A program made the position numbers and the translations under genes. DNA of 64,000 nt from Candidatus Staskawiczbacteria bacterium (GTDB lineage Bacteria; Patescibacteriota; Minisyncoccia; Minisyncoccales; Staskawiczbacteraceae): positions 1,254 to 65,253 of the forward strand of contig CAVZWH010000014.1 in assembly GCA_963778905.1 (NCBI GenBank). Direction: 5' to 3'. Positions 9,306-48,147 of this stretch are shown one piece after another. The notes below the pieces were generated by a model. It saw only the letters and a program-made list of their open reading frames with translations. It was not told where the DNA came from and ran no database searches. The number at the start of each line of letters is the position of its first letter. Within the stretch, counting starts at the first letter, position 1.

Positions 9306-10943
<1,638 letters not shown>

Positions 10944-10951
10944 TTATTAAA

Positions 10952-11032
10952 GCGAGGCAAATAAATTTTTGCAGCCTCCGCAGTGCCGCGAAGCGGACAC
11001 GAGGACTAGCAAAAAAATTTATTTGCCGAGCG
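10952..11032. repeat. long imperfect palindromic element filling the groES-groEL intercistronic gap
   Basis: GGCAAATAAATTTTTGC (10956-10972) pairs with GCAAAAAAATTTATTTGCC (11009-11027). The GC-rich inner hairpins include CCGCGAAGCGG. The spacer is 101 nt. Confidence 0.55.
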
Positions 11033-11323
11033 CTATTCTATAATTGCTAATATGTCGCTTTCTGTGGCGATTAAATATTCTTTGTTATCAATTTTTATTT
11101 CATTCGGCCCGTATTTTGTAAACAAAACTTTGTCGCCGGGTTTCACTGACATCATCATTATTTTTCCATCTTCTGTTTTTTTGCCGGGGCCTACGGCAAT
11201 AACTTTTCCTTCTTCTGATTTTTCTTTTGAAGCCGTGTCAGGCAAAAAAATTCCGGCTTTTGTTTTTTCTTCTTCCTTTATCGGCTCAATTAAAATATGA
11301 TCTGATAATGGTTTGATTGTCAT
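11033..11323 (-). CDS. groS: co-chaperonin GroES
   Basis: 96 aa, canonical (IKPLSDHILIEP..., AGIFLPDTA, GKVIAVGPG). Confidence 0.96.
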   Translation of the reverse strand: MTIKPLSDHILIEPIKEEEKTKAGIFLPDTASKEKSEEGKVIAVGPGKKTEDGKIMMMSVKPGDKVLFTKYGPNEIKIDNKEYLIATESDILAIIE

Positions 11324-15015: not shown

Positions 15016-16062
15016 TTAAGAAACGTTAATCCAAAATCTATTTTTGAAATAATGCTGAATTTTGTGTGTATTGGCATGGGACAGAAATCCAAGATATGAC
15101 TGCAACGATTGGAGAAGCGAATTTCTGGAAATAAGTCCTTGATTGTATTTTTTTATTCTTGATTCAAATTTTTTTATAATTCTCTTTTTTGTTTTTGTTC
15201 TGACCAATCTATGCTTTTGAAAAACTACATAGCCAAGAAAATCTATTCCTTGGCTCGTTTTTCGTATTTTTGTTTTCTCTTCGTGAATTTTTAACAAAAG
15301 ATTTTCTTCTAAGAAATCTATTATTTGCGGCACAAGATTTTCTAAATATTTTCTATTTTCCGAAAGTATCAAAAAATCGTCTGTATAGCGAAGATAATAT
15401 TTTACTTTTAGTTCTTGTTTTATAAATTTATCAAGCTCGTTTAGATAAATATTGGCAAAAAGCTGAGAAGTTAAGTTTCCAATAGGAACTCCTTTATTAA
15501 TGCCCAACACAGAATAACTTGACGAAAAGCTTGATATAATCTGCTCTAAAAGCCAAAGTGTATCATTCTCCTTTACTTTCTTTTTTAAGATTGTGAGCAG
15601 AACATTATGGTCTATTGTGTCAAAAAACTTTTTAATGTCGCACTTCAGAGAAAAGCATGAAACCTTATTATTTTTGCTTACTTTTCTTAATATGCTTTGC
15701 AAAAAATCCACTCCTTTATGAGTGCCGTAGCCCTCCCTGCAAGAAAAAGATGCGGAGATAAAGCCAGCTTCAAAGATGGGATTTAGAACCTGGAAAACAG
15801 CATGGTGCAAAATGCGGTCTAAAACTTGCGCCTTATGGATGTTTCTTGGCTTCGGGTCTGAAATATTAAAAGAAATGTAATTTGAATGTTTGTAGGTTTT
15901 GCTTTTTAGCTCTCTGTGCAGTTTAAATATATTTTCTTCAAGGTTCCATTCAAAAAGCTGAACATCTTTTTTGTTTCTTTTGCCGTTTTTAAATTTATCC
16001 CAGGCTAAAAATAGGTTCTCTGAAGAAGTAATCTCGCTAAATAGGTCTCTATAAATCTTCAT
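15016..16062 (-). CDS. DGR-type reverse transcriptase
   Basis: RT motifs including YTDDFLIL, plus the DGR-diagnostic IGNLTSQLFANIYL motif ([ILV]GxxxSQ). Start moved to Met19 (MKIYRDLF...), because the longer ORF would overlap the divergent avd start. Confidence 0.9.
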   Translation of the reverse strand: MKIYRDLFSEITSSENLFLAWDKFKNGKRNKKDVQLFEWNLEENIFKLHRELKSKTYKHSNYISFNISDPKPRNIHKAQVLDRILHHAVFQVLNPIFEAGFISASFSCREGYGTHKGVDFLQSILRKVSKNNKVSCFSLKCDIKKFFDTIDHNVLLTILKKKVKENDTLWLLEQIISSFSSSYSVLGINKGVPIGNLTSQLFANIYLNELDKFIKQELKVKYYLRYTDDFLILSENRKYLENLVPQIIDFLEENLLLKIHEEKTKIRKTSQGIDFLGYVVFQKHRLVRTKTKKRIIKKFESRIKKYNQGLISRNSLLQSLQSYLGFLSHANTHKIQHYFKNRFWINVS

Positions 16063-16091
16063 AATAAAAAAATAACTAATTAATAAAAAAT

Positions 16092-16445
16092 ATGACAGAA
16101 GAATTTGATATACCAATATTTAAAAAAGTTTATGATTTGTATAAAACGTTTTATGCTTTCAGGACTACGGTTCCAAAACAAGAAAAATATACTGTCTGGC
16201 AAAAATCTGAAAATCTGATTTTGGAAATCTTGGAAGGGATATTATCGGCCAGCTATAAACATAAATTTGAGAAAACTCCCATATTAGAAAAAACTAGTCT
16301 AAAGCTTAATGTCCTCCGTGTTCTTATCAGGCTGATGAAAGATATTAAAGCAATCGATAATAAAAAGTATTCCTTGTTAGAGGAAAACATAGATGAAATT
16401 GGAAGGATGCTTGGCGGATGGCTGCGATCCACCGTCAGCAGATAG
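16092..16445 (+). CDS. avd: four-helix-bundle protein, Avd-like DGR accessory protein
   Basis: 117 aa, all-helical, ends ...EIGRMLGGWLRS as in Avd/23S-IVS four-helix-bundle proteins. Lies between TR and RT but on the opposite strand. Confidence 0.75.
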   Translation: MTEEFDIPIFKKVYDLYKTFYAFRTTVPKQEKYTVWQKSENLILEILEGILSASYKHKFEKTPILEKTSLKLNVLRVLIRLMKDIKAIDNKKYSLLEENIDEIGRMLGGWLRSTVSR

Positions 16446-16452
16446 ATTCAAT

Positions 16453-16490
16453 ATTACAAAAGGCATTCAAAAATGAATGCCTTTTGTAAT
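16453..16490. other. perfect 17-bp hairpin 13 nt downstream of the TR (minus-strand sense)
   Basis: ATTACAAAAGGCATTCA-AAAA-TGAATGCCTTTTGTAAT. No T-run on either strand, so it is not an obvious intrinsic terminator. It occupies the position of a DGR spacer RNA structure. Confidence 0.5.
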
Positions 16491-16502
16491 TGGTGAGGAG
16501 AG

Positions 16503-16650
16503 ACTTCGGGGCGAAGAACGACGAGGAGCCATAGTTGTCGTTGGCATTGTCGACATACTTCGTGTCGAACTTGACCTTGCCGTCGTTGAAGTTGAAGTAC
16601 GGAGCGTGGTCAAACTGGCCCGAGCCATCATCGCAAAATTTGCCTTTATC
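16503..16650 (-). repeat. DGR template repeat (TR)
   Basis: Ungapped alignment to 17070-17217 at offset 567. 27 of 28 mismatches fall where this copy has A on the minus strand. Confidence 0.9.
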
Positions 16651-16930
16651 CATCCTTGGGTTTGAAGTACTAATTAAAATTAGTACTTCAAACCCTTACA
16701 CTGGATATAGAGGTTTACTTCTGCGTTAGCAAACTATATCCTCTCAATCCTGTATTTTATTCGACGGCATTTCTTAAAAAAGAAAACCCGCCACAGATAA
16801 GGCAAGCAGTATCTCCCCAAGACAACGCGCTCTTTGCATCCGTGAACGCAAAGACTCTGGTTGTTTTATGAAAAGAGAGTTCGGTGACAGTCATCCTTAA
16901 ACAACTGTTCATTAACCTAATCTCAAATCA

Positions 16931-16958
16931 AGTATACACAAAATATATTTTTTTGCAA
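16931..16958 (-). promoter_or_regulatory. candidate sigma70 promoter for the TR-containing transcript
   Basis: On the minus strand: TTGCAA, 16 nt, TATACT. Overlaps the T-tract of the target-gene terminator. Confidence 0.3.
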
Positions 16959-16996
16959 AAAAAAGATGGCGTTGTCTGCAGAGCAAACAACGCCAT
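16957..16996 (-). terminator. rho-independent terminator of the DGR target gene
   Basis: On the minus strand: ATGGCGTTGT-(11 nt)-ACAACGCCAT followed by T8. Confidence 0.6.
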
Positions 16997-17067
16997 GTGC
17001 CGCGAACGAAAGGTTCAAGGAATAAGAATTCGAAAGAACCAAGCGTTCGAAGCTTGAGGAACAGGTT

Positions 17068-17979
17068 TTACTGCGGGGCGAAGAACGACGAGGAGCCATA
17101 GCGGTCGTAGGCAATGCCGACATACCCCGTGCCGAACCCGACCTCGCCGACGCGGAAGAAGAAGCACGGAGCGCGGCCAAACCGGCCCGAGCCATCATCG
17201 CAAAACTCGTCGCCAGCGCAATCGATGTCCAGCTCTTCCCAGCGAACGAGTCGCTCGGGATGAGTCAGGATAATGGAACCGACTGCGAGACTGGTGAGGC
17301 CGAACTCGTTGGTCTTAAAGACCTCGCGAGCCCGACGTACCGAACGTCCGCGGTGGCGCATGCCGAGCTGACCAGCGATGATCAGGATGTCGCCCTTTTG
17401 CGTTTGGGTGATCTGATTGATCATCTGTGCCGTGCGAGTGTGAACTCGCAGGTGAGCCGTGTCGATCTGGCCTTGGCGGTAGTTGTAGAACGACCGCGAA
17501 CCAGCGACCTTCTCGTGAACCAGTTGGACAGCGCGGCAGTACTTCTCGGTCGGGTCTTTGACCTCCGGGAAAAACCTGGAAGCCAAAGCATCAACCGACG
17601 GAATGGCGAACCATCCTTCGGCGCCTTCAGGAAGTTCGGGAAGATTTTTCGCGAACTCAAGGGCTTGACTCGGGTCGAGGTTGAAGATCGCGGCAAGTGC
17701 CTTGATCTGCGCCTCGATCTGCTTGGGCCCCTTGTACTCCTTGGGGTACGTGTAGCTGGAACAAACTTCTTCGTTCTTGAACCTGTCGGTGAGACAATTC
17801 TCGGCGATGAAGCTGCTTACCAGATCGGAAAGACCCGGAGCTTCGTTAACTCGCTGAGATTCCTCCTCGGACAGTCCGGCCTTGTTGTAGGCAGCCTCGA
17901 CAACCGAGATGAACTTGAGACCCTTTGGGTCCCGAGCTGTAACAATAGACGGAGCCAATGTCGTAGACATCGGAGCCAT
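17068..17979 (-). CDS. DGR variable (target) protein, family unknown
   Basis: 303 aa; GGAGAAAGG Shine-Dalgarno; the C-terminal roughly 49 codons are the VR. No signal peptide seen, no domain recognised by eye. GC is far above the window background. Confidence 0.85.
   Translation of the reverse strand: MAPMSTTLAPSIVTARDPKGLKFISVVEAAYNKAGLSEEESQRVNEAPGLSDLVSSFIAENCLTDRFKNEEVCSSYTYPKEYKGPKQIEAQIKALAAIFNLDPSQALEFAKNLPELPEGAEGWFAIPSVDALASRFFPEVKDPTEKYCRAVQLVHEKVAGSRSFYNYRQGQIDTAHLRVHTRTAQMINQITQTQKGDILIIAGQLGMRHRGRSVRRAREVFKTNEFGLTSLAVGSIILTHPERLVRWEELDIDCAGDEFCDDGSGRFGRAPCFFFRVGEVGFGTGYVGIAYDRYGSSSFFAPQ
17070..17217 (-). repeat. DGR variable repeat (VR)
   Basis: See the TR entry. This is the 3' end of the target ORF and abuts its stop codon. 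Confidence 0.9.
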
Positions 17980-18139: not shown

Positions 18140-19444
18140 ATGGATAAATTCAAATTTCTGCCGAAATCAAAACTCAACAACCTCCCGAAAACAAGCGGAG
18201 TATATTCTTTTTATGATAAAAAAGAACTTGTTTATATTGGCAAGGCAATAAATATACAAAACAGAGTTAAAAACCACTTTCATCGGGTTAAATACCGCGA
18301 AGCGGTAATTTCGCCTTCGGCGAAATTATTTAACCCGATGAAGCAACCGTCTTACAGAGATGATTTATTTATAGAAAAAGTAAATAAAATTAGTTTTTTT
18401 GTGACCAATTCAGAAATTGAAGCGTTAATTTTGGAAGCAAATTTAATTAAAAAATATCAGCCAAAATTCAATGTTGTCTGGCGAGATGATAAAAATTATT
18501 TTTATGTGGCGATAACAAAAGGCGAAAAGCCGATTGTTTATATAACACACCAAAAAAATGAGCCGGCAGAATACATTGGACCTTTTGTGGAGGGAAATGC
18601 CTTAAAAAAAACTTTAAGGTTTTTGAGAAGAGTGTTCCCCTACTACACAACAAAAAATCATCCTAAAATAAAATGCACCTATTGCCATTTGGGTTTATGC
18701 CCGGGGCCAAATCCAAATTTAACAGAATACAAAAAAAATATAAAAAAATTAATTTCTATTTTGCAGGGAAAAAGAAATGCTGTTTTAAATTCTCTAAAAA
18801 AAGAAATGAAAAAACTTTCAAGAGAGAACAGATTTGAGGAAGCTGGAAAAATTAGGGACAGAATTTTTAATTTACAGCAGGTAATGTCGCACACAAATGT
18901 AATCAGCAGCGAAAAAGTTAGTGCGAGGTCGGATCTCGCCCAAATTTTAGGCAAGATTCTGCATATGGAGAATAAAATAGAAAGAATTGAGTGTTATGAT
19001 GTTTCCAATATCCAGGGAAAATCTGCAACCGGGTCCATGATTGTTTTTGCAGATGGAAAACCAGATAAAAGTCAGTACAAAAAATTTAAGATAAAAATGG
19101 AAAATGAACCGAACGACATCGCTATGTTAAAAGAAGTGCTGGAAAGAAGATTTGCGCATCCAGAATGGAAATATCCCGAGGTAATTTTAATAGACGGCGG
19201 AATCGGCCAACTAAACGTTGGCCTCAAAATCAAAAATCAAAATCCAAAAATCAAAAATATTTTATTTATATCTTTGGCGAAAAGAAACAAAGAATTATTT
19301 ATTGAGGGCAAGCAAAAACCAATTTTGTTAAAATCTTTGCCTCAAGAAATTTATAATCTGATTTTGCAGCTTGACGACGAAGCGCATAAATTCGCAATAG
19401 CTTACCACAAAAAACTAAGAAGTCGGGATTTATTATTGCACTAA
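18140..19444 (+). CDS. uvrC: excinuclease ABC subunit C (short form, no C-terminal HhH domain visible)
   Basis: 434 aa; GIY-YIG (GVYSFYDKKELVYIGKA), UVR domain (RFEEAGKIRDRIFNLQ) and endonuclease domain (IECYDVSNIQG, ILIDGGIGQL). Contains a 20-codon palindromic insertion. Confidence 0.9.
   Translation: MDKFKFLPKSKLNNLPKTSGVYSFYDKKELVYIGKAINIQNRVKNHFHRVKYREAVISPSAKLFNPMKQPSYRDDLFIEKVNKISFFVTNSEIEALILEANLIKKYQPKFNVVWRDDKNYFYVAITKGEKPIVYITHQKNEPAEYIGPFVEGNALKKTLRFLRRVFPYYTTKNHPKIKCTYCHLGLCPGPNPNLTEYKKNIKKLISILQGKRNAVLNSLKKEMKKLSRENRFEEAGKIRDRIFNLQQVMSHTNVISSEKVSARSDLAQILGKILHMENKIERIECYDVSNIQGKSATGSMIVFADGKPDKSQYKKFKIKMENEPNDIAMLKEVLERRFAHPEWKYPEVILIDGGIGQLNVGLKIKNQNPKIKNILFISLAKRNKELFIEGKQKPILLKSLPQEIYNLILQLDDEAHKFAIAYHKKLRSRDLLLH
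18281..18340 (+). repeat. 60-nt in-frame palindromic insertion inside uvrC
   Basis: CATCGGGTTAAA..TTTAACCCGATG forms a 12-bp outer stem. It encloses CCGC-GAA-GCGG and TAATTTCGCC-TTC-GGCGAAATTA hairpins. Encodes HRVKYREAVISPSAKLFNPM. Confidence 0.65.
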
Positions 19445-22670: not shown

Positions 22671-22671
22671 A

Positions 22672-22800
22672 CCCCGTTAGAAGTCTTAATAACCTGATAA
22701 AATTTTTTGCTGGTTAAAATTACAAATGGCGAAAAATATTGAAATGAGATTGCAAAAATATTTTCAAAAAAAATATTTTTGCTCAAGACTTCTAACGGGG
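22672..22800 (+). mobile_element. MITE-like element, copy A (129 bp)
   Basis: TIRs CCCCGTTAGAAGTCTT / AAGACTTCTAACGGGG. TAAA direct repeats at 22668-22671 (which contains the pgi stop codon) and 22801-22804. Internal AT-rich hairpin. Confidence 0.65.
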
Positions 22801-22808
22801 TAAAATCC

Positions 22809-22891
22809 GCGGGTATGGCGGAACAGCAGACGCGCTGGCTTCAGGAGCCAGTGGGAGAAATCTCGTGGAGGTGCAAATCCTCCTACCCGCA
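22809..22891 (+). tRNA. tRNA-Leu (anticodon CAG)
   Basis: GCGGGTA acceptor, anticodon arm CTGGC-TTCAGGA-GCCAG, long variable arm, T arm GGAGGTGCAAATCCTCC, TACCCGC-A. Confidence 0.9.
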
Positions 22892-38606: not shown

Positions 38607-38732
38607 AAATTTTGTTATAGAGAGAGTTCGACTTTATAATTTAAAAATATTAAAAAATAAAATGATAATCCTGCCAAATGATAGCATTTTGCGTGTCGCA
38701 AAATGCTATTTGCCAGGATGCTTATGCAACAA

Positions 38733-38978: not shown

Positions 38979-40070
38979 CTATCTTCTGGTTTTTATTGAT
39001 TGCAAAATACCGAGTGAAATAAAATTACCTATTAAGCCCGAACCGCCGTAACTGATAAACGGCAAATAAATTCCTACAACCGGCAGCAAAGATAAATTCA
39101 TTCCAATATTAATAAAAAATTGGACTGTTAAAATTATTGCAAACCCCGAGGCAAAAAGACGCGGAAAGTTTGACTTAGATTCAATTGCAATTTTTAGAAC
39201 GCGCCAGACCAAAAATCCATAAATTATAAATAATGCTAAAACTCCAATCATTCCCCACTCTTCTGCAATTACAGAAAAAATAAAATCAGTGTGGGGCTCG
39301 GGCAAAAATCCGTATTGCACCTGGCTTCCTTTTGCCAAGCCTTGGCCAAAAATTTGGCCGGAGCCAATTGAAATTTTTGTCTGGTTCTGGCTCCACGAAG
39401 CTCCCAAATAATCATAAGGAAATAAAAAAGCAGTTATTCTTTGTTTTTGATAATCCTTTAATAAAAAATGCCACGAAAACCCAGCTACCAACACAAAACA
39501 TATAGAAAGAATTAAAAAGTGTTTTATTTTAATTCCAGATATCAATAAAATTCCCAGCCATATTAATAACAAAACCATAGTTCCGCCCAAATCCGGTTTT
39601 ATAAAAACAAAAATTGCCAGCGGCAAAACGTACAAGCCCGAAAAAATAATATGCCTGAATTTATACATTTCAACGTGCCTCATTGAAAAATATTTTGCCA
39701 GCAAAACCACCAAAACAATTTTTGTCGGCTCAATCGGGTCCAAAGACAAAAGCCCAACCTTGTACCAGCCTCTTGTTCCCCTGATTACCGGAGCAAAAAA
39801 ATGAAGGCCAGCCAACAAAAATAAACATATTCCGTACAAAATTAAAATTAAATAAGAATTATTTCTTAATATTCTGTAATCAAAAAAACTTACAGCAATC
39901 ATGACTAAAAATCCAAACGCAAAAAAAATAATTTGCTTTTCAAAATTTGAAAAATTGTTTTTTGCCACGCAGGTGCTATAAATTGCAGCCAAACCAAAAC
40001 AAACCAGCAAAAATGCTGGAATTGTTAGTCCCCAATCAAGTTTTTTTAATTGACTCGTTAAAACACCCAT
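38979..40070 (-). CDS. SEDS-family peptidoglycan glycosyltransferase (FtsW/RodA)
   Basis: 363 aa; about 10 TM helices; family strings (GTRGWY, EPTKI, PEPHTDFIFSVIAEEWG, LPFISYGGS). Confidence 0.85.
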   Translation of the reverse strand: MGVLTSQLKKLDWGLTIPAFLLVCFGLAAIYSTCVAKNNFSNFEKQIIFFAFGFLVMIAVSFFDYRILRNNSYLILILYGICLFLLAGLHFFAPVIRGTRGWYKVGLLSLDPIEPTKIVLVVLLAKYFSMRHVEMYKFRHIIFSGLYVLPLAIFVFIKPDLGGTMVLLLIWLGILLISGIKIKHFLILSICFVLVAGFSWHFLLKDYQKQRITAFLFPYDYLGASWSQNQTKISIGSGQIFGQGLAKGSQVQYGFLPEPHTDFIFSVIAEEWGMIGVLALFIIYGFLVWRVLKIAIESKSNFPRLFASGFAIILTVQFFINIGMNLSLLPVVGIYLPFISYGGSGLIGNFISLGILQSIKTRR

Positions 40071-40133
40071 TCTATTTTACCCAGTTAAATAAAATCCTTC
40101 GGGATTTTAATTTTTAGTATTACTAAAAATTAT

Positions 40134-42134
40134 TTAACCAGGGTGAATCAGTTTCAAAAATTCCTGTTCATCCAAGATTTTTACTCCCAATTTTTTTGCT
40201 TTTTCCGCCTTGTTTCCCGACTCTGAGCCTTGCACAACGTAATCTGTTTTTGAAGACACAGATTCGGAAACATCTCCGCCAAGCTCTCTTATTTTTGCCC
40301 GGGCTTCATCCCGCGACATTTTTTCCAAACTTCCGGTTAAAACAAATGTTTTTCCTTTCAATTTGTCGCTTCCGGCTTTTGGTTTTGGATTTGTAATTTT
40401 AACTTTTTTTTCTAATTTTTCCAAAAATTTTAAGTTGTCTTTTTCTTTGAACCATTCGTAAATTGATTTTGATACAACCGGCCCAATATCCAAAATTTTC
40501 TCAAAATCTTCCAATTTTGCCTTTCTTATTTTTTTAATTGAGCCAAAATATTTTGCCAAATCAATTGCGGTTTTTTCTCCCACATTTCTAATTCCTAAAG
40601 CATAAATAAATTTTGCCAAAGTAATTTCTTTTTTATCCTGAATTGATTTTATTAAATTTTCCGCTGATTTTTCCGCAAACCTCTCTAAATTTTTGACATC
40701 TCCTTCTTTCAATTCAAACAAATCGCTTGGATTTTGCACCAAACCTTCGTCCAATAATCTATCAATAATTTTTGGCCCCAATCCATCAATATTAAAAGCA
40801 ATGCGCGAAACAAAATGATAAAAATTTCTTCTTTTTTGCGCAAAACAATTTTTATTTGGGCACCTTAAAAGAACTTCTGTTTCTAATTTTATCAGCTTTG
40901 TTCCGCAAGCCGGACATTTTTTTGGCATTTTGAATTTTTTTTCATGTCCGGTTCTTAATTCCGGCAAAACTTTTATAATATCCGGAATAACGTCTCCTGC
41001 CCTGCCCACAATTACTGTGTCCCCAATTTTTAATCCCAATCTTTTTATTTCATCTTCGTTGTGCAAGGTTGCTCTGGTAATTGTAATTCCTGTAACTTGC
41101 ACCGGCTCTAAAATCGCAACCGGAGTCATGGCTCCGGTTCTGCCAACTTGAACTGTGATTCCTAAAACTTTTGTGGTTGCTTGGACTTGAGGAAACTTAA
41201 AGGCAATTGCTCCCCTCGGCGCTTTTCCGACAACTCCCAATTTTTCAAAAATTTCATTATCATTTACCAAAACAACAACGCCGTCAATTTCATAATCCAA
41301 TTTTTCTCTTTCTTTTATCCAATGCTCGCGGAATTTCAAAATTTCTTCCAAATTTTTGCAATATTTATTATGTTTGTTTGTCTTAAATCCTAAATCTTTT
41401 AATATCTTATGCTTGTCTTCATGAGTTTTTTGGCCAAGGTCAGTCAGCAATTCGTAGGCAAATGAATCTAATTTTCTGCCAGCAGTAATTTTTGGGTCTA
41501 ACTGCCTCACAGAACCCGCCGCAATATTTCTTGGATTTGCATAAACCGCTAAACCCTTTTCTTTTTGTAACTTATTCATTTTCTCAAATTCTTTTTTGGT
41601 AACAAAAACTTCACCGCGGACAATTATTTCCCGCTTGTCATCAATTTTTAGCGGAATTGCCTCAACTGTTTTTAAGTTTTGAGTTATGTCTTCTCCAATG
41701 TTTCCATCCCCTCTTGTGGCGCCTGTTTGCAAAAGTCCGTCTTTGTAAATTAATTCAATGGCCAATCCGTCAATTTTTAATTCGCAATAGAAATCTATTT
41801 TATTTTTTTCATTTTCAGCAACTAATTTTACAAATCTTTCCTGCCAGTCTTCCATGTCTTCTTTGGAAAACGCATCGTTGAAAGAAAGCATTCTTTGAAG
41901 ATGCTTTACTTTTTTGAATTCCTTTAAGGGCTCTCCCCCTACTCTTTGCGTTGGCGAATCAGGAGTTATTAAATCAGGATATTTTTGTTCTAAATCAAAA
42001 AGCTCCTTTTTCAAGGAGTCCAAGGCAGAGTCAGATATCTCTTGTTTGTCTAAAACATGATAAAGATACCTGTGGTGGTTTATAACCTCTCTTAATTTAT
42101 TTATTCGTTGTTGGTACTGATATTTGTTGTCCAT
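40134..42134 (-). CDS. ligA: NAD-dependent DNA ligase
   Basis: KxDG adenylation motif (ELKIDGLA), Zn finger (CPACGTKL..CPNKNC), HhH and BRCT. Start moved to MDNKYQYQQRINKLREVI. Confidence 0.95.
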   Translation of the reverse strand: MDNKYQYQQRINKLREVINHHRYLYHVLDKQEISDSALDSLKKELFDLEQKYPDLITPDSPTQRVGGEPLKEFKKVKHLQRMLSFNDAFSKEDMEDWQERFVKLVAENEKNKIDFYCELKIDGLAIELIYKDGLLQTGATRGDGNIGEDITQNLKTVEAIPLKIDDKREIIVRGEVFVTKKEFEKMNKLQKEKGLAVYANPRNIAAGSVRQLDPKITAGRKLDSFAYELLTDLGQKTHEDKHKILKDLGFKTNKHNKYCKNLEEILKFREHWIKEREKLDYEIDGVVVLVNDNEIFEKLGVVGKAPRGAIAFKFPQVQATTKVLGITVQVGRTGAMTPVAILEPVQVTGITITRATLHNEDEIKRLGLKIGDTVIVGRAGDVIPDIIKVLPELRTGHEKKFKMPKKCPACGTKLIKLETEVLLRCPNKNCFAQKRRNFYHFVSRIAFNIDGLGPKIIDRLLDEGLVQNPSDLFELKEGDVKNLERFAEKSAENLIKSIQDKKEITLAKFIYALGIRNVGEKTAIDLAKYFGSIKKIRKAKLEDFEKILDIGPVVSKSIYEWFKEKDNLKFLEKLEKKVKITNPKPKAGSDKLKGKTFVLTGSLEKMSRDEARAKIRELGGDVSESVSSKTDYVVQGSESGNKAEKAKKLGVKILDEQEFLKLIHPG

Positions 42135-42561
42135 TTTTAATAGCGCTTGCTGAAGCTTGGAATAGAAGAATGCCAAAAGCTTTTGCCACTGATTTATCTT
42201 TAAAATCTATAACTCCAAAAAAACCATTACTGCCGGTCTTATCCATTAACTGAACTTTCATATATCTGTTGTCTTCCAAAGCCAAACCATAATAAAGCGG
42301 CTGCAAACTTTGTCCATTTTGGCCAGCCAAAATATTGTCCCTTGTCAAAATTTCTTTGTCAACTATCTTAAAGTCGCTGTATTTCTGAGTATAATTTTTA
42401 ATATCCTTATTCGTTTCCAAAATTTTTATAATTTCCTCATTGCTTACTGCTGACAAATTTTTTATCTGGCTTTTAGAATTTTTATTTTGGAAAATAAGAT
42501 AGATGCAAACAACAATTAACAATAAAACAACTAACAAAATTATCAATATGTTTTTTTTCAT
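42097..42561 (-). CDS. hypothetical membrane-anchored protein
   Basis: 154 aa with an N-terminal TM helix. No family recognised. Confidence 0.45.
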   Translation of the reverse strand: MKKNILIILLVVLLLIVVCIYLIFQNKNSKSQIKNLSAVSNEEIIKILETNKDIKNYTQKYSDFKIVDKEILTRDNILAGQNGQSLQPLYYGLALEDNRYMKVQLMDKTGSNGFFGVIDFKDKSVAKAFGILLFQASASAIKNGQQISVPTTNK

Positions 42562-43805: not shown

Positions 43806-45740
43806 CTAGTGCGAAGTTGCAATTGTTGGCACCTGTATACACAATGCCTCAGACCCCGAATTCTGACATAATCCTGAAACAGTTAACGATGCTGTTTTGT
43901 ACGACGGAGACAAACCGAGCAGGTTGTCGCCCTGGTAAACTGCTTCTAAGGTGTGAGTTCCTGAGAAGGACGGAGTGTAGGTGTAGGTGGCTGTGCCACT
44001 TGAGTTTGTGGTAACAGGAGTGCTGTTGATGAGGGTTGCAGAATCATTGTCTCTAAATGTAATTGGTTCGCCTGCAACAGCTGAAGACAGCGTGGCTGTC
44101 AGAGTTACTGCGGTTCCCACTGAAATGCTTGATGAGCTTAAAGTAAAGGTGTTGATGGTAGTTGGGTTGCTCTGGGCCGGAGTCTGCACGCACAATATCT
44201 CAGAGCCCGAGGTTGAACAGCTGCCGGAAATGGCAAGCTGGGCTGTTTTGTACGACGGAGACAAACCGAGCAGGTTGTCGCCCTGGTAAACTGCTTCTAA
44301 GGTGTGAGTTCCTGAGAAGGACGGAGTGTAGGTGTAGGTGGCTGTGCCACTTGAGTTTGTGGTAACAGGAGTGCTGTTGATGAGGGTTGCAGAATCATTG
44401 TCTCTAAATGTAATTGGTTCGCCTGCAACAGCTGAAGACAGCGTGGCTGTCAGAGTTACTGCGGTTCCCACTGAAATGCTTGATGAGCTTAAAGTAAAGG
44501 TGTTGATGGTAGTTGGGTTGCTCTGGGCCGGAGTCTGCACGCACAATATCTCAGAGCCCGAGGTTGAACAGCTGCCGGAAATGGCAAGCTGGGCTGTTTT
44601 GTACGACGGAGACAAACCGAGCAGGTTGTCGCCCTGGTAAACTGCTTCTAAGGTGTGAGTTCCTGAGAAGGACGGAGTGTAGGTGTAGGTGGCTGTGCCA
44701 CTTGAGTTTGTGGTAACAGGAGTGCTGTTGATGAGGGTTGCAGAATCATTGTCTCTAAATGTAATTGGTTCGCCTGCCACAGCTGAAGACAGCGTGGCTG
44801 TCAGAGTTACTGCGGTTCCCACTGAAATGCTTGATGAGCTTAAAGTAAAGGTGTTGATGGTTGTTGGGTTGCTTGGCGGTGGTATCTGTACACATAACAA
44901 CATAGATCCTGAGGTGGCCAGCACACCACAACCTGTTACATTAAAAGGCCCTATTTGAGATTGAGACGGCAGAGTTTCTATTTGAGCGTCCCCATTATAT
45001 TTGGCCTGAATAGTAATATTGCCTGTTGCGCTAAAAGTAATATAATAATATGCTCTAGCTACTCCGAGAGAATCAGTGGTTGCTGTTCCTATGGTAATTG
45101 GCGAACCTGGATTTGTTATGTCAGTAAAAGTGATTGTTTGGCCAGCTATTACCGGACCATTTGTGTATTTCAAAGCAGCCGAAAGATTAATTGTAGAACC
45201 CTGTGTTATTGGTAAAGGAGAAGCTGTAAAATTAATTATTTGGGTTTGCGCTGCGTTGCTTATGACAAAACTTGTTATATGATTATAATCTGTTCCTGAA
45301 GATTCTTGCATGCTGTTATTTAACAAATTATCTGTCGCAGAAATGTCAACCCAGTAAGTGGCGTTGGGATCCCAAACAGAAGTATTAGAAACATCAATAA
45401 TCAAGCCAAAAGTGCCGTCTCCGGCGGCGCCATCGCGATGCGAGCCGTCGTCGGACATTGTGCCATCTATAGAATATACGTCATTCATATATTGCACAGG
45501 ACTGCTGTTGGGCACCTCAATGTTTGCTACTGAAGAGTAAACTCCGGAAACATCCGTGACATCAGCCGTTATAACAATAAAATTAGAATATTTATAAACT
45601 TTAACGTTTGCAACGCTTGGATATGCAGTTCCGCCGGGAGGGACAACTTCAAAAGTTGGCATGGCATAACATGCATTAAAAGAAAAACAGAAAATAAGCG
45701 ATACAAAAATTAAAATTGTATAAAAGAAAAACTTTCTCAT
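43806..45740 (-). CDS. secreted Ig-like-repeat surface protein (candidate pilus-associated adhesin)
   Basis: 644 aa; signal peptide; four Ig-like modules, of which the last three are near-identical 117-aa repeats. Immediately downstream of the minor pilin genes. Confidence 0.7.
   Translation of the reverse strand: MRKFFFYTILIFVSLIFCFSFNACYAMPTFEVVPPGGTAYPSVANVKVYKYSNFIVITADVTDVSGVYSSVANIEVPNSSPVQYMNDVYSIDGTMSDDGSHRDGAAGDGTFGLIIDVSNTSVWDPNATYWVDISATDNLLNNSMQESSGTDYNHITSFVISNAAQTQIINFTASPLPITQGSTINLSAALKYTNGPVIAGQTITFTDITNPGSPITIGTATTDSLGVARAYYYITFSATGNITIQAKYNGDAQIETLPSQSQIGPFNVTGCGVLATSGSMLLCVQIPPPSNPTTINTFTLSSSSISVGTAVTLTATLSSAVAGEPITFRDNDSATLINSTPVTTNSSGTATYTYTPSFSGTHTLEAVYQGDNLLGLSPSYKTAQLAISGSCSTSGSEILCVQTPAQSNPTTINTFTLSSSSISVGTAVTLTATLSSAVAGEPITFRDNDSATLINSTPVTTNSSGTATYTYTPSFSGTHTLEAVYQGDNLLGLSPSYKTAQLAISGSCSTSGSEILCVQTPAQSNPTTINTFTLSSSSISVGTAVTLTATLSSAVAGEPITFRDNDSATLINSTPVTTNSSGTATYTYTPSFSGTHTLEAVYQGDNLLGLSPSYKTASLTVSGLCQNSGSEALCIQVPTIATSH
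43885..44880. repeat. tandem repeat, 351-bp unit, about 2.8 copies
   Basis: Shadow ORFs at 43987, 44338 and 44689 are spaced 351 nt apart, and the first two are identical over 100 aa. I saw one synonymous difference (44778 C versus A). Confidence 0.9.
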
Positions 45741-46611: not shown

Positions 46612-47346
46612 TTATTGTGCGTTAAGATTTCTTTGTGAGACCGTTGTTTGGATTGTTCTTGTCGGCTCTTGGCTGTCTCCTGGAATTTGGATTTGCATAG
46701 TAACGGTTACTCTTGGCTGAAAATATTCTAAGCCGGTGTCTTGGTCGTCAATAGGATAACCAGCGCCATAAATTCCATTAAACCCGTCTATTCCAAACCT
46801 GATTGAATTTATATTAAGCTCTTTTGAAGTAAGAGCCACTGCGTTTTCGTCGCCAACTTTGGCATAGGGCGAGTATGTTTTTAATTCTTTCAAAATATAC
46901 GGAGTTGAGCTTGTGTCTAAATAAAATTCTTGGCAAACGGGAACTCCTGAATTATCTGTATTGGATTGGTTCAAAAATTTTATGCCGGTAAAAAAACTGG
47001 CGCCGGAAATGGTAACTGGCCTGGTGAGCAGATATGTGTATCCTGAATAATATGTCTCGGGATTCGGGCTTAAAGAAGAGTTATCAACAAGACAATTTCC
47101 CGCAGTATCTTTTGTCGCCATTCTCATTGCTTTTGACATATATTCTTCAACATAACTCACTTGATTCAAAAGTTCCTGCTCGGCCAAAATTTTCTTCTGG
47201 TGCTGAACAATTGAAATAAAAATTCCTATAGCAGCTCCGATGACAAACATAAATACGCCCATAACCACAATCAATTCTATTAAAGTAAACCCCGTTAGAA
47301 GTTTGCCATCCTTAGAATATTTTTTTGTAGTTATTGATGATTTCAT
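46612..47346 (-). CDS. minor type IV pilin (PilW-like) whose leader is encoded by a MITE-like element
   Basis: Starts at ATG 47346: MKSSITTKKYSKDGKLLTG|FTLIELIVVMGVFMFVIGAAIG. The ORF-track TTG start at 47406 is inside the element and less likely. Confidence 0.7.
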   Translation of the reverse strand: MKSSITTKKYSKDGKLLTGFTLIELIVVMGVFMFVIGAAIGIFISIVQHQKKILAEQELLNQVSYVEEYMSKAMRMATKDTAGNCLVDNSSLSPNPETYYSGYTYLLTRPVTISGASFFTGIKFLNQSNTDNSGVPVCQEFYLDTSSTPYILKELKTYSPYAKVGDENAVALTSKELNINSIRFGIDGFNGIYGAGYPIDDQDTGLEYFQPRVTVTMQIQIPGDSQEPTRTIQTTVSQRNLNAQ

Positions 47347-47419
47347 TGTTAATTTGTGGCGGTAGAAGTCCAGCTGGACTTCTACCGCGATATTATTTAA
47401 TCGCAAACTTCTAACGGGG
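47290..47419 (-). mobile_element. MITE-like element, copy C1 (130 bp), inside the 5' end of a pilin gene
   Basis: TIRs CCCCGTTAGAAGTTTG / CAAACTTCTAACGGGG; TAAA direct repeats at 47286-47289 and 47420-47423; 100% identical to copy C2. Confidence 0.7.
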
Positions 47420-47450
47420 TAAACCTTTTGATTTTCTCTGCATTTTGAAA

Positions 47451-48050
47451 TTAACTATTATAGTTGTACCAATTATAAAAATATTCTTCTGCTGTAATAG
47501 AGCCGGGAGCGCCAGTTGGATTCAAAACATTTGGCTTTTCATCCCAATAAACAGTGACAGCAATTTTTGCAACGTAATCAATGCCAGGTAAAAAACTTAC
47601 TAAAATTTGCCTCCTAAATTTTGTCTTCTGGCCGCTGCTGTAATTATAAAATCCGTTTGTATCTATTTTCAAATAATCATTTTGGTATGTAGCCATTGCA
47701 AAAGGTACTGTTGCGCCCGAACCAGTTGTGTAATCTGCTTCGCATCCTCCAATATCGCTTGTGCAAGCAGAAAGGCTTTGAAGCCAATCAGTGGTGGTGC
47801 CAGAATCCGAGGCAAGCCAGTTGGTATCTCTTATATTTCTTGCTATCTCTATGCCCTCCTGAGCTAAATAAGCTGCTGTAAGACGGTCGGAGGCATCGGC
47901 AGTTAAAACAACTATCATGGAAAAAGCGCCATAAATGCCCACAATAGCAACGGACAAAATAAAAATAGAAATAATCAGTTCAATAATTGTAAACCCCGTT
48001 AGAAGTTTGCCATCCTTAGAATATTTTTTTGTAGTTATTGATGATTTCAT
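47451..48050 (-). CDS. minor type IV pilin (PilV-like) whose leader is encoded by a MITE-like element
   Basis: Starts at ATG 48050: MKSSITTKKYSKDGKLLTG|FTIIELIISIFILSVAIVGIYGAF. Confidence 0.7.
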   Translation of the reverse strand: MKSSITTKKYSKDGKLLTGFTIIELIISIFILSVAIVGIYGAFSMIVVLTADASDRLTAAYLAQEGIEIARNIRDTNWLASDSGTTTDWLQSLSACTSDIGGCEADYTTGSGATVPFAMATYQNDYLKIDTNGFYNYSSGQKTKFRRQILVSFLPGIDYVAKIAVTVYWDEKPNVLNPTGAPGSITAEEYFYNWYNYNS

Positions 48051-48123
48051 TGTTAATTTGTGGCGGTAGAAGTCCAGCTGGACTTCTACCGCGATATTAT
48101 TTAATCGCAAACTTCTAACGGGG
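47994..48123 (-). mobile_element. MITE-like element, copy C2 (130 bp), inside the 5' end of a pilin gene
   Basis: Same sequence as C1; TAAA direct repeats at 47990-47993 and 48124-48127. Confidence 0.7.
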
Positions 48124-48147
48124 TAAACCTTTTGACATATTGTTTTA

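Follow-up and report, generated by a model that had tools for sequence, protein, structure and literature searches.

Hairpins that are richer in GC than their surroundings invade compact AT-rich genomes in fungal mitochondria, where GC clusters, double-hairpin elements and 'byp' elements enter coding regions as well; some of these organellar elements have two adjacent hairpins, and byp elements are skipped by the ribosome. Among bacteria, Rickettsia has palindromic elements (RPEs; Ogata et al., 2000, via PMC10969869) that are dispersed over a small AT-rich genome. They are repeatedly met in frame within housekeeping genes that are unrelated to one another, where they lengthen the protein by a peptide segment in regions predicted to tolerate it, and they also occur outside genes. 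Those transposable elements of the miniature inverted-repeat kind (MITEs) that make fusions with open reading frames (ORFs), namely Correia, ERIC and BOX, are short and non-autonomous, with inverted repeats at both termini; they usually lie between genes and share the transcripts of their neighbors, and now and then lie inside a gene and produce an in-frame fusion (PMC10969869). Repetitive extragenic palindromes (REPs) and bacterial interspersed mosaic elements (BIMEs) are small, orientation-biased palindromes of enterobacteria and pseudomonads that occupy the intercistronic and 3' parts of operons, for which a role in the stability of mRNA or in termination has been proposed, as has mobilization by a dedicated transposase that leaves no duplication (PMC2817692, PMC3733652). 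Here we describe a 60-nt palindromic element inside uvrC of a Candidatus Staskawiczbacteria bacterium, contained in a stretch of 64,000 nucleotides (GCA_963778905.1, contig CAVZWH010000014.1, positions 1,254 to 65,253; hereafter the window, whose own numbering is used). The original prediction, made from the letters of this stretch, had placed at 18281-18340 an in-frame insertion that resembles RPEs, in the GIY-YIG domain of the encoded protein.

Our study describes this element as a member of a previously undescribed palindromic repeat family of Parcubacteria-type genomes of the Candidate Phyla Radiation (CPR), whose structure is conserved with compensatory changes, and the uvrC copy as a clean, lineage-specific insertion of 20 codons at the end of helix alpha1. 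We consider it likely that the 60 nt are a copy of a dispersed palindromic repeat, selfish or mobile like RPEs or a MITE, which is translated as a tolerated surface loop of UvrC. The letters at 18281-18340 (CATCGGGTTAAATACCGCGAAGCGGTAATTTCGCCTTCGGCGAAATTATTTAACCCGATG) agree with the earlier reading, and sequence and folding alike bear out the proposed fold with two inner hairpins. The outer stem is also present, with a length of 16 bp and not of 12 bp as proposed, so that the whole forms a perfect palindrome of 64 nt (Table 1). With 10-nt flanks, the RNA folded with a minimum free energy of -36.1 kcal/mol; the 200 dinucleotide shuffles gave -15.4 +/- 2.9, none of them folding as well (z = -7.1), and the DNA fold gave z = -7.9. 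In a sliding scan of the 64-kb window the element ranked in the top three 60-mers by stability, the other highly stable ones being terminators, the neighboring retroelement region and another repeat. It is GC-richer than the gene around it, as had been noted (about 0.46 versus 0.325 in the surrounding kilobase).

The host gene encodes a short, CPR-type UvrC that is otherwise intact, and whose GIY-YIG domain scores 24.9 bits against a Pfam cut-off of 22.6. The insertion lies after residue F47, at the end of GIY-YIG helix alpha1 (..RVKNHF). All 119 other proteins in the best 120 UvrC matches (60-74% identity) pass from ..RVKNHF directly to [QN]Q.., with zero surplus residues, and therefore lack the 20 residues. 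At DNA level the empty sites read AAC CAT TTT CAA CAG CC. (L055, L056) and AAT CAT TTT CAG CAG CTG (L053), and the filled site reads CAC TTT CAT CGG ... CCG ATG AAG CAA CCG; a hypothetical CAC TTT CAG CAA CCG plus 60 nt gives the window sequence exactly, the insertion splitting one Gln codon into His...Lys. Measured against the empty orthologous sites, the net insertion is of 60 nt, which confirms the predicted length of exactly 20 codons; expressed as codons it corresponds to 18281-18340 and encodes HRVKYREAVISPSAKLFNPM. No direct repeat indicating a target duplication was found at the uvrC insertion when compared with these three empty sites, the sole site where this can be judged.

In agreement, the alignment of the protein to the solved UvrC N-terminal domains 1YD6 and 1YCZ breaks at this point (query 9-48 on chain 6-46, query 76-120 on chain 55-99), which maps about 20 surplus residues directly after helix alpha1. 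An AlphaFold2 model (81 sequences) keeps the GIY-YIG strands 20-26, 29-36 and 83-88 and the helices 39-48 and 92-106, while residues 47-76 have a predicted local distance difference test score (pLDDT) below 50; averaged over blocks of 10 residues, it is 26 and 28 in 51-70. The window protein, itself the reference sequence of the 81-sequence alignment, has every residue that is invariant across the aligned proteins. Perfect palindromes can come from library artefacts, such as a hairpin adaptor or a chimeric read. However, the Logan assembly of run ERR11523660 holds an identical uvrC with the insertion included, and as this assembly is independent the insertion is not an assembly artefact; the family also occurs in dozens of unrelated assemblies from many projects, and the insert is in frame with no stop codon. 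In this sense, the probability of an artefact is practically negligible.

The dispersed nature of the element became evident from its relatives. A scan of GTDB species representatives with the pattern ATCGGGTTAAA-N(20-50)-TTTAACCCGAT gave 8 copies in two other CPR metagenome-assembled genomes and one probable chance match, and a scan of metagenomes with CGGGTTAAATA-N(15-45)-TATTTAACCCG gave 44 loci from the assemblies of many projects. After duplicates and some unrelated single-hairpin palindromes had been removed, 37 copies were aligned, and 36 exact-arm copies entered the alignment that gave the consensus CATTTAT-CGGGTTAAATA-[AAAATCC TTCG GGATTTT]-[AATTTTGC nnnn GCAAAATT]-ATTTAACCCG-ATGAATTTTT. 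Copies consist of a 16-17-bp outer stem around two short hairpins, 58-66 nt overall, and share the stem core TTYAY-CNNG-TTAAATA / TATTTAA-CNNG-RTRAA, which the perfectly paired stem of the window copy (TTCAT-CGGG-TTAAATA / TATTTAA-CCCG-ATGAA) fits. A mismatch-tolerant scan added at least 15 further copies with covarying arms, for example ACCCAGTTAAATA..TATTTAACTGGGT. In the alignment A2 (31 main-type copies), 95.9% of the cells are paired as the three-helix structure demands, where apparent conservation of the arms is inflated because the search patterns preset them; 12 pairs changed on both sides, which 0 of 500 shuffles matched, and slid controls paired in 32-59%. The covariance model R1, built from these 31 copies with the window copy not among them, recognized the uvrC copy with 58.2 bits (E = 3.5e-11, span 18274-18347) and detected, over the 278 kb of loci retrieved, about 56 distinct copies with conserved stem and covarying hairpins. 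Hosts of the family, which numbers at least 50 distinct copies, are Staskawiczbacteria, Portnoybacteria and other Patescibacteria. A literature search on palindromic elements, MITEs, REPs and repeats in CPR, Patescibacteria, Parcubacteria and Staskawiczbacteria did not retrieve the family, its coverage being incomplete and the absence thus unproven.

Hairpin 1 occurs in the subtypes AAAATCC, TAGCGC and TACCGC. A hairpin identical to that of the window (TACCGC-GAA-GCGGTA) is found in L012 (3911-3984) and L058, and near-identical ones in L001 and L057, the TACCGC subtype being intergenic in L001 and inside genes in L012, L057 and L058. That the change from TAG to TAC in the window hairpin is a compensatory stop removal was considered and discarded, as the TACCGC hairpin is also present in intergenic copies. 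We refer to the order with the short hairpin first and the AATTT..AAATT hairpin second as form 1, and to the reverse orientation as form 2. Single-hairpin palindromes of doubtful relationship to the family occur in L010, L021 and L030 (human gut and other samples) and in L011, L034 and L046, with the exact arms CGGGTTAAATA..TATTTAACCCG and unrelated interiors and flanks; this single-hairpin set scores 28-40 bits with R1, and one such set is nested in a longer inverted repeat, gctcttaggtSg ... cSacctaagagc.

In-frame insertion is a recurrent event in the family, in MnmA and at several sites of UvrC. Among the approximately 56 copies, two lie inside ORFs, that of the window uvrC and one in MnmA of L012 (IHPVKYREAVISARPKLFDWVK, 52.5 bits with R1), which is surplus compared with solved MnmA structures. 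An exhaustive phmmer search with the 30-aa segment spanning the insert gave a single match at E <= 0.001, P0125. This Candidatus Portnoybacteria UvrC shares 48% identity with that of the window, and its DNA (L057) holds three in-frame copies. The first of them (54.6 bits) is at the same ..NHF site, with the same length of 20 codons and the same orientation as in the window, and AAG CAA comes next; its arms are CCTG/CAGG, and the following 14 codons, those of helix alpha2, are gone. The second (38.7 bits) lies between the Cys motif and the UVR domain, and the third (28.3 bits), in the RNase H-like domain, has only one hairpin and 45 nt. The uvrC of L058 carries one copy (47 bits), and the UvrC homologues P0006 and P0045 a decayed one near the N-terminus (DNA L053 1461-1537, 21.6 bits). 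The peptide signature is found in 29 of 244 retrieved sequences, namely 25 of 240 UvrC-length proteins plus four small ORFs (P0121-P0124), and the UvrC copies occupy about five distinct sites. After ..NHF, 18 UvrCs carry the element, and helix alpha2 is replaced in 16 of these 18. A 44-aa concatenated peptide query returned only the same four small predicted ORFs, which encode ..HPVKYREAVISPSAKLFN.., the interior of the window copy, and not the UvrC of the window itself.

The sole frame open through both arms reads CAY CNN GTT AAA ... TTT AAC NNN RTN, that is, H-x-V-K...F-N-x-V/M. Stops interrupt all six frames in 37 of 51 copies, the window copy is open in exactly one, and every in-frame copy found uses this same frame, a pattern that selection against disrupted genes would leave. 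A different possibility would be that the 60 nt are not translated, either because they are excised from the mRNA or because the ribosome hops over them, as it does in T4 gene 60 and in the mitochondrial byp elements. Bypass elements generally have this setting, a compact and very stable hairpin within the coding region of an AT-rich genome. Nevertheless, the reading frame stays open through the element, whose number of nucleotides is a multiple of three, and no stop codon follows a take-off codon. Moreover, the shared open frame of the in-frame copies speaks against this possibility, as does the peptide that replaces helix alpha2 in one clade, which is conserved as protein sequence and only makes sense if translated, so that we regard an untranslated insert as very improbable.

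The ..NHF site carries the element in a distant UvrC clade as well, and the question arises as to whether the window copy was inherited or gained anew. A rough neighbor-joining tree, computed from masked identity distances, places the UvrC of the window within clades of 4, 10, 57, 90 and 96 leaves that are free of carriers. It is 76-78% identical to its nearest neighbors in the tree and 52-61% to the carriers, which are scattered over the tree with a Fitch minimum of 11 changes. Because of this nesting we read the window copy as an independent gain in its lineage at a recurrently used site, as the rough tree indicates. A single ancient insertion at ..NHF, common with the Portnoybacteria-type UvrC clade and precisely lost in the close relatives of the window, would also account for the same codon boundary, 20-codon length, orientation and hairpin-1 subtype in L057, L058 and the window, as well as for the AAG CAA that then follows in the three of them, and perfect palindromes can be precisely lost by replication slippage. 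But besides the position of the window UvrC within 96 carrier-free homologues and the scatter of the carriers, 4 of the 6 outermost stem pairs differ by double changes, the carriers are without helix alpha2 and the window UvrC keeps it, and the empty sites read CAA CAG, where a precise excision would leave AAG CAA. Shared descent is consequently quite improbable.

An independent gain may have been facilitated by the site. In other UvrCs, short inserts unrelated to the family are found in the ..NHF loop too (PSRSEGERRTNVLRT, ..LLRQGFGGQ..), so that it is at least permissive and perhaps favored, and a mechanistic preference may exist, since the codons for K-N-H-F (AAA AAC CAY TTT) resemble the CATTT flank of many intergenic copies.

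Unrelated to the family, other short in-frame inserts occur in UvrC homologues (L058 1309-2889 = P0193; P0139, P0157, P0176, P0185, P0233, P0146, P0171, P0205 and others): PSRSEGERRTNVLRT lies at the ..NHF site and ..WEQ.LLRQGFGGQ.. in place of helix alpha2, and the DNA of a EFAEPSAHLTSHPASQGST insert before ..IEAL forms the GC hairpins GAGCC-TTC-GGCTC and CCCTGC-TTC-GCAGGG. These inserts suggest further hairpin repeats that invade coding regions in Parcubacteria. At protein level, variable inserts such as SPKPKGEGGFDVI and KNLKFKIKNLKLECI are found in the GIY-YIG beta-hairpin between GVY and YIGKA (P0014, P0033, P0038, P0107, P0110 and others, and P0080, P0092, P0112 and P0115), and may be further repeat-derived segments. 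Also, uvrC of the two closest homologues contains a 16-bp perfect hairpin, AAAGATTTTGTTAAGTC-CGA-GACTTAACAAAATCTTT (L055 3708-3750 and L056 1432-1474), which encodes ..ESKDFVKSDLTKSL.. and matches R1 weakly (18-22 bits).

Within the window, exact and near-exact searches with the arms and hairpins found only the element itself, and a second copy therefore needed the covariance model. The earlier reading, in which no second full copy was found in the window, thus stands for an exact copy and not for a diverged one, which R1 located between genes at 40071-40152 (Table 1). The hairpins of this copy are of the main type and its arms (ACCCAGTTAAATA..TATTTAACCAGGGT) have diverged. Of the two flanking genes, both on the minus strand, ligA (40134-42176) has its end within the arm (..IHPG*), and the start of ftsW (38979-40070) lies 10 nt past it. 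A consensus scan around it gave no terminator match and a single weak promoter-like match (10/12) overlapping an arm, the promoter-like matches near this copy being 11 versus 6.3 +/- 2.3 in shuffles, about 2 standard deviations higher. Separately, at 10929-11054 a 42-nt imperfect inverted repeat (71% complementary) has in its center the CCGC-GAA-GCGG mini-hairpin of the uvrC element and scores 13.6 bits with R1, which is noise level.

The usual home of the family is the spacer between co-directional genes, ribosomal-protein operons among them, and for nearly all copies the flanking genes read the element in form 2. The gene upstream often stops inside the 5' arm, as in ATT CAT CGG GTT AAA TAA (..IHRVK*), with TCA TCG GGT TAA (..NSSG*) as an alternative, and the downstream ATG often lies 4 nt past the other arm. 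In 21 of 51 copies CAT, the reverse complement of this ATG, has the same offset relative to the arm (CCCGATAAATG), and a called gene start coincides with it in 17 of about 31 intergenic copies in the usual orientation. Orthologous spacers of different genomes retain the element, with compensatory changes, upstream of a yebC-like gene (L023, L025, L036) and of a 59-aa zinc-ribbon ORF (L017, L038, L042, L051). This ORF is conserved and has two CxxC motifs (MFDRNNNDRGFAPREMIKGNWKCSECGVEITELPFEPAPDRPIYCKECWSKKRPPRFSR); L017 and L051 have a further copy of the element at a distance of about 100 nt.

This setting gives rise to a functional alternative, according to which the element is an RNA or DNA structure, a portable intercistronic module, rather than selfish DNA. 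Candidate roles would be translational coupling, an RNase processing site or an mRNA stabilizer; in the coupling version, the stem would sequester the downstream AUG and be melted by the ribosome terminating in the other arm. On the functional reading as a whole, the copy within uvrC would modulate expression of the gene, for example through ribosome pausing. Several observations are in line with it: the placement of many copies, in one preferred orientation, in conserved operons (such as ssb/rpsR, rplF/rplR, rpsB/tsf, rplJ/rplL and dnaG/rpoD), the stop of the upstream gene inside the 5' arm, the CAT offset with its called starts, the retention of the element in orthologous spacers, synonymous sites far more conserved than those of the host gene, and an extended stem that pairs with the AU of the downstream AUG. 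On the contrary, the uvrC copy has the orientation opposite to most intergenic copies, both orientations occur at the sodA-neighbor spacer (L004, L012), and Rfam 15 contains no family over the element in the window (gathering thresholds) or in five element-bearing loci (E <= 1). The preset arms account for part of the apparent conservation, and survival in frame is explained without a regulatory role inside the coding region. We consider a functional structure in place of selfish DNA unlikely, and an RNA-level role such as translational coupling doubtful. Rather unlikely as well is a family that is not merely selfish, a conserved portable RNA module that bridges stop and start codons and whose coding-competent subtype was repeatedly exapted into proteins, replacing UvrC alpha2 in one clade. 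If true, this module might serve coupling or processing in leader-poor, ultra-compact operons, and the UvrC clade would keep it at the peptide and the nucleotide level.

Regarding the selfish or mobile repeat, the explanation that we prefer, the element would spread as a selfish or non-autonomous mobile sequence without target duplication. Genic copies would survive only under three conditions: first, the frame open through both arms; second, an interior that is free of stops and has a length divisible by three; and third, a permissive surface loop. The uvrC copy combines the three and would be transcribed and translated as an extra 20-residue loop tolerated by UvrC.

Some results weigh against this explanation. 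No transposase or autonomous parent turned up in the 64 kb and the short loci, in which no dedicated transposase search was made; as there is no target duplication either, we infer mobility from the distribution of the copies. The fixed stop/start register and the preferred orientation of intergenic copies relative to transcription are further points, as is the conservation of the element. Between L057 and L058 it is identical at 57 of 60 nt and 18 of 20 third positions, versus identities of 0.70 (amino acids), 0.55 (third positions) and 0.37 (four-fold sites) in the rest of uvrC. The window copy is identical to those of L057 and L058 at 45-47 of 60 positions, versus 0.25 at four-fold sites, and between L025 and L036 the interior is identical at 29 of 39 positions versus 0.55 at yebC third positions. 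A function of the RNA or DNA that is under selection would account for this excess conservation, and for the fixed register with its preferred orientation, no less well than pure selfishness. Recent independent insertions from conserved masters, gene conversion or selection on the fold would each suffice to explain the conservation. In addition, the low AlphaFold2 confidence extends to the native helix alpha2 just past the insert.

CPR/Patescibacteria genomes are regarded as extremely streamlined. The element creates spurious small ORFs (P0121-P0124) and artificial C-terminal tails (..IHRVK*, ..NSSG*), and adds inserts of 15-25 residues that lower Pfam scores, as in the GIY-YIG domain of the window. 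It also supplies ready-made peptide segments, one of which replaces a helix of a nuclease domain in one clade, and the stop/start register of the intergenic copies provides a testable handle on the translation of adjacent genes.

Table 1. Features of the palindromic element, its family copies and the neighboring retroelement (positions are those of the window unless a locus is given; spacer gene names were assigned from terminal peptide motifs alone)
Feature	Position or locus	Strand	Remarks
Complete palindromic element	18279-18342	+	perfect pairing; form 1 on the uvrC coding strand
5' arm of outer stem, TTCATCGGGTTAAATA	18279-18294	+	conserved arm of the repeat family
Hairpin 1, CCGC-GAA-GCGG	18295-18305	+	extendable to TACCGC/GCGGTA; TACCGC subtype
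Hairpin 2, TAATTTCGCC-TTC-GGCGAAATTA	18306-18328	+	equivalent hairpin covaries across the family
3' arm of outer stem, TATTTAACCCGATGAA	18327-18342	+	pairs with 18279-18294
Net 60-nt insertion	18282-18341	+	18283-18342 equally good (1-nt ambiguity)
uvrC, 434 aa, short CPR-type form	18140-19444	+	otherwise intact; GIY-YIG, UVR and UvrC_RNaseH domains
Second family copy, intergenic (ligA / ftsW spacer)	40071-40152	+	R1 75 bits, E = 3e-15
Possible degenerate one-hairpin relative, downstream of ftsW	38660-38727	+	R1 22.8 bits, E ~0.01; weak match; stable hairpin
ssb / rpsR spacer	L009
rplF / rplR spacer	L037
rpsB / tsf spacer	L040
rplJ / rplL spacer	L015
dnaG / rpoD spacer	L001
Upstream of secE-nusG	L003
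fur / sodA spacer	L004
Reverse transcriptase, RVT_1	15016-16116	-
bAvd accessory gene	16092-16445	+
Template repeat	16503-16638
Variable repeat	17070-17205
Retroelement target gene	17068-17979	-	57% GC; no Pfam match; variable repeat at 3' end

The window contains other repeats as well. Directly upstream of uvrC lies a diversity-generating retroelement (15016-17979; Table 1), in which 21 of 21 mismatches between template and variable repeat fall at a plus-strand T, that is, at A on the gene strand. A second MITE-like family of about 135-145 nt, unrelated to the uvrC element, is present at 22671-22801, 47282-47427 and 47993-48124, two copies being nearly identical; its terminal inverted repeats measure 21 nt (GTAAACCCCGTTAGAAGT ... 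ACTTCTAACGGGGTAAA) and enclose a GC hairpin. A tRNA gene (22809-22891) directly adjoins one copy, and minus-strand ORF predictions run into the other two. Moreover, identical 60-mers at 44209-44268 and 44560-44619, 351 nt apart in a GC-rich (49%) and strongly GC-skewed kilobase (44001-45000), may be a tandem repeat within a gene.

Other known elements were considered for the uvrC copy and rejected. The arms fit GTTRRRY/RYYYAAC of integron attC sites, in which the order is RYYYAAC ... GTTRRRY, and here it is reversed (5' GTTAAAT ... ATTTAAC 3'); the stem is also perfect, without bulged or extrahelical bases. An intrinsic terminator is ruled out as the uvrC copy is followed by GAAGCAACCG, with no U run on the transcribed strand; in most intergenic copies the T run is on the strand opposite to the flanking genes. 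Finally, no programmed bypass is needed, as the insert consists of 20 in-frame sense codons with no stop or frame break, and the open frame likewise distinguishes it from byp elements. A relationship in sequence to the hairpin elements of fungal mitochondria is not expected.

In comparison with REPs and BIMEs, the Parcubacteria family also consists of small intercistronic palindromes with orientation bias, and differs in that neither end has a GTAG or CGTC head, in an element of at least 60 nt versus 20-40 nt, and in entering coding regions, REPs being extragenic by definition; its copy number also seems low, with 2 in 64 kb. With MITEs it shares terminal inverted repeats (16-17-bp arms), a mostly intergenic location and occasional in-frame copies. 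Unlike them, it shows no target-site duplication at the sole site with a reconstructable empty allele, is much shorter than most MITEs and forms, as a whole element, one compact fold. In behavior the family comes closest to RPEs, whose likeness the original prediction had pointed out, and to the MITEs that make ORF fusions. Like RPEs, it is a dispersed palindromic repeat in a small, AT-rich genome, found in frame in UvrC (the window, three times in L057, L058 and L053) and in MnmA (L012), and it shares with them the repeated in-frame insertion and the copies outside genes. It differs from them in length (about 100-150 bp in RPEs versus 58-66 nt), in belonging to another phylum, the CPR/Patescibacteria, in the three-way junction with two covarying inner hairpins, and in a mostly intergenic location with a fixed stop/start register. 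On this comparison, the family is by its length outside the ten Rickettsia RPE families; the likeness is one of behavior only.

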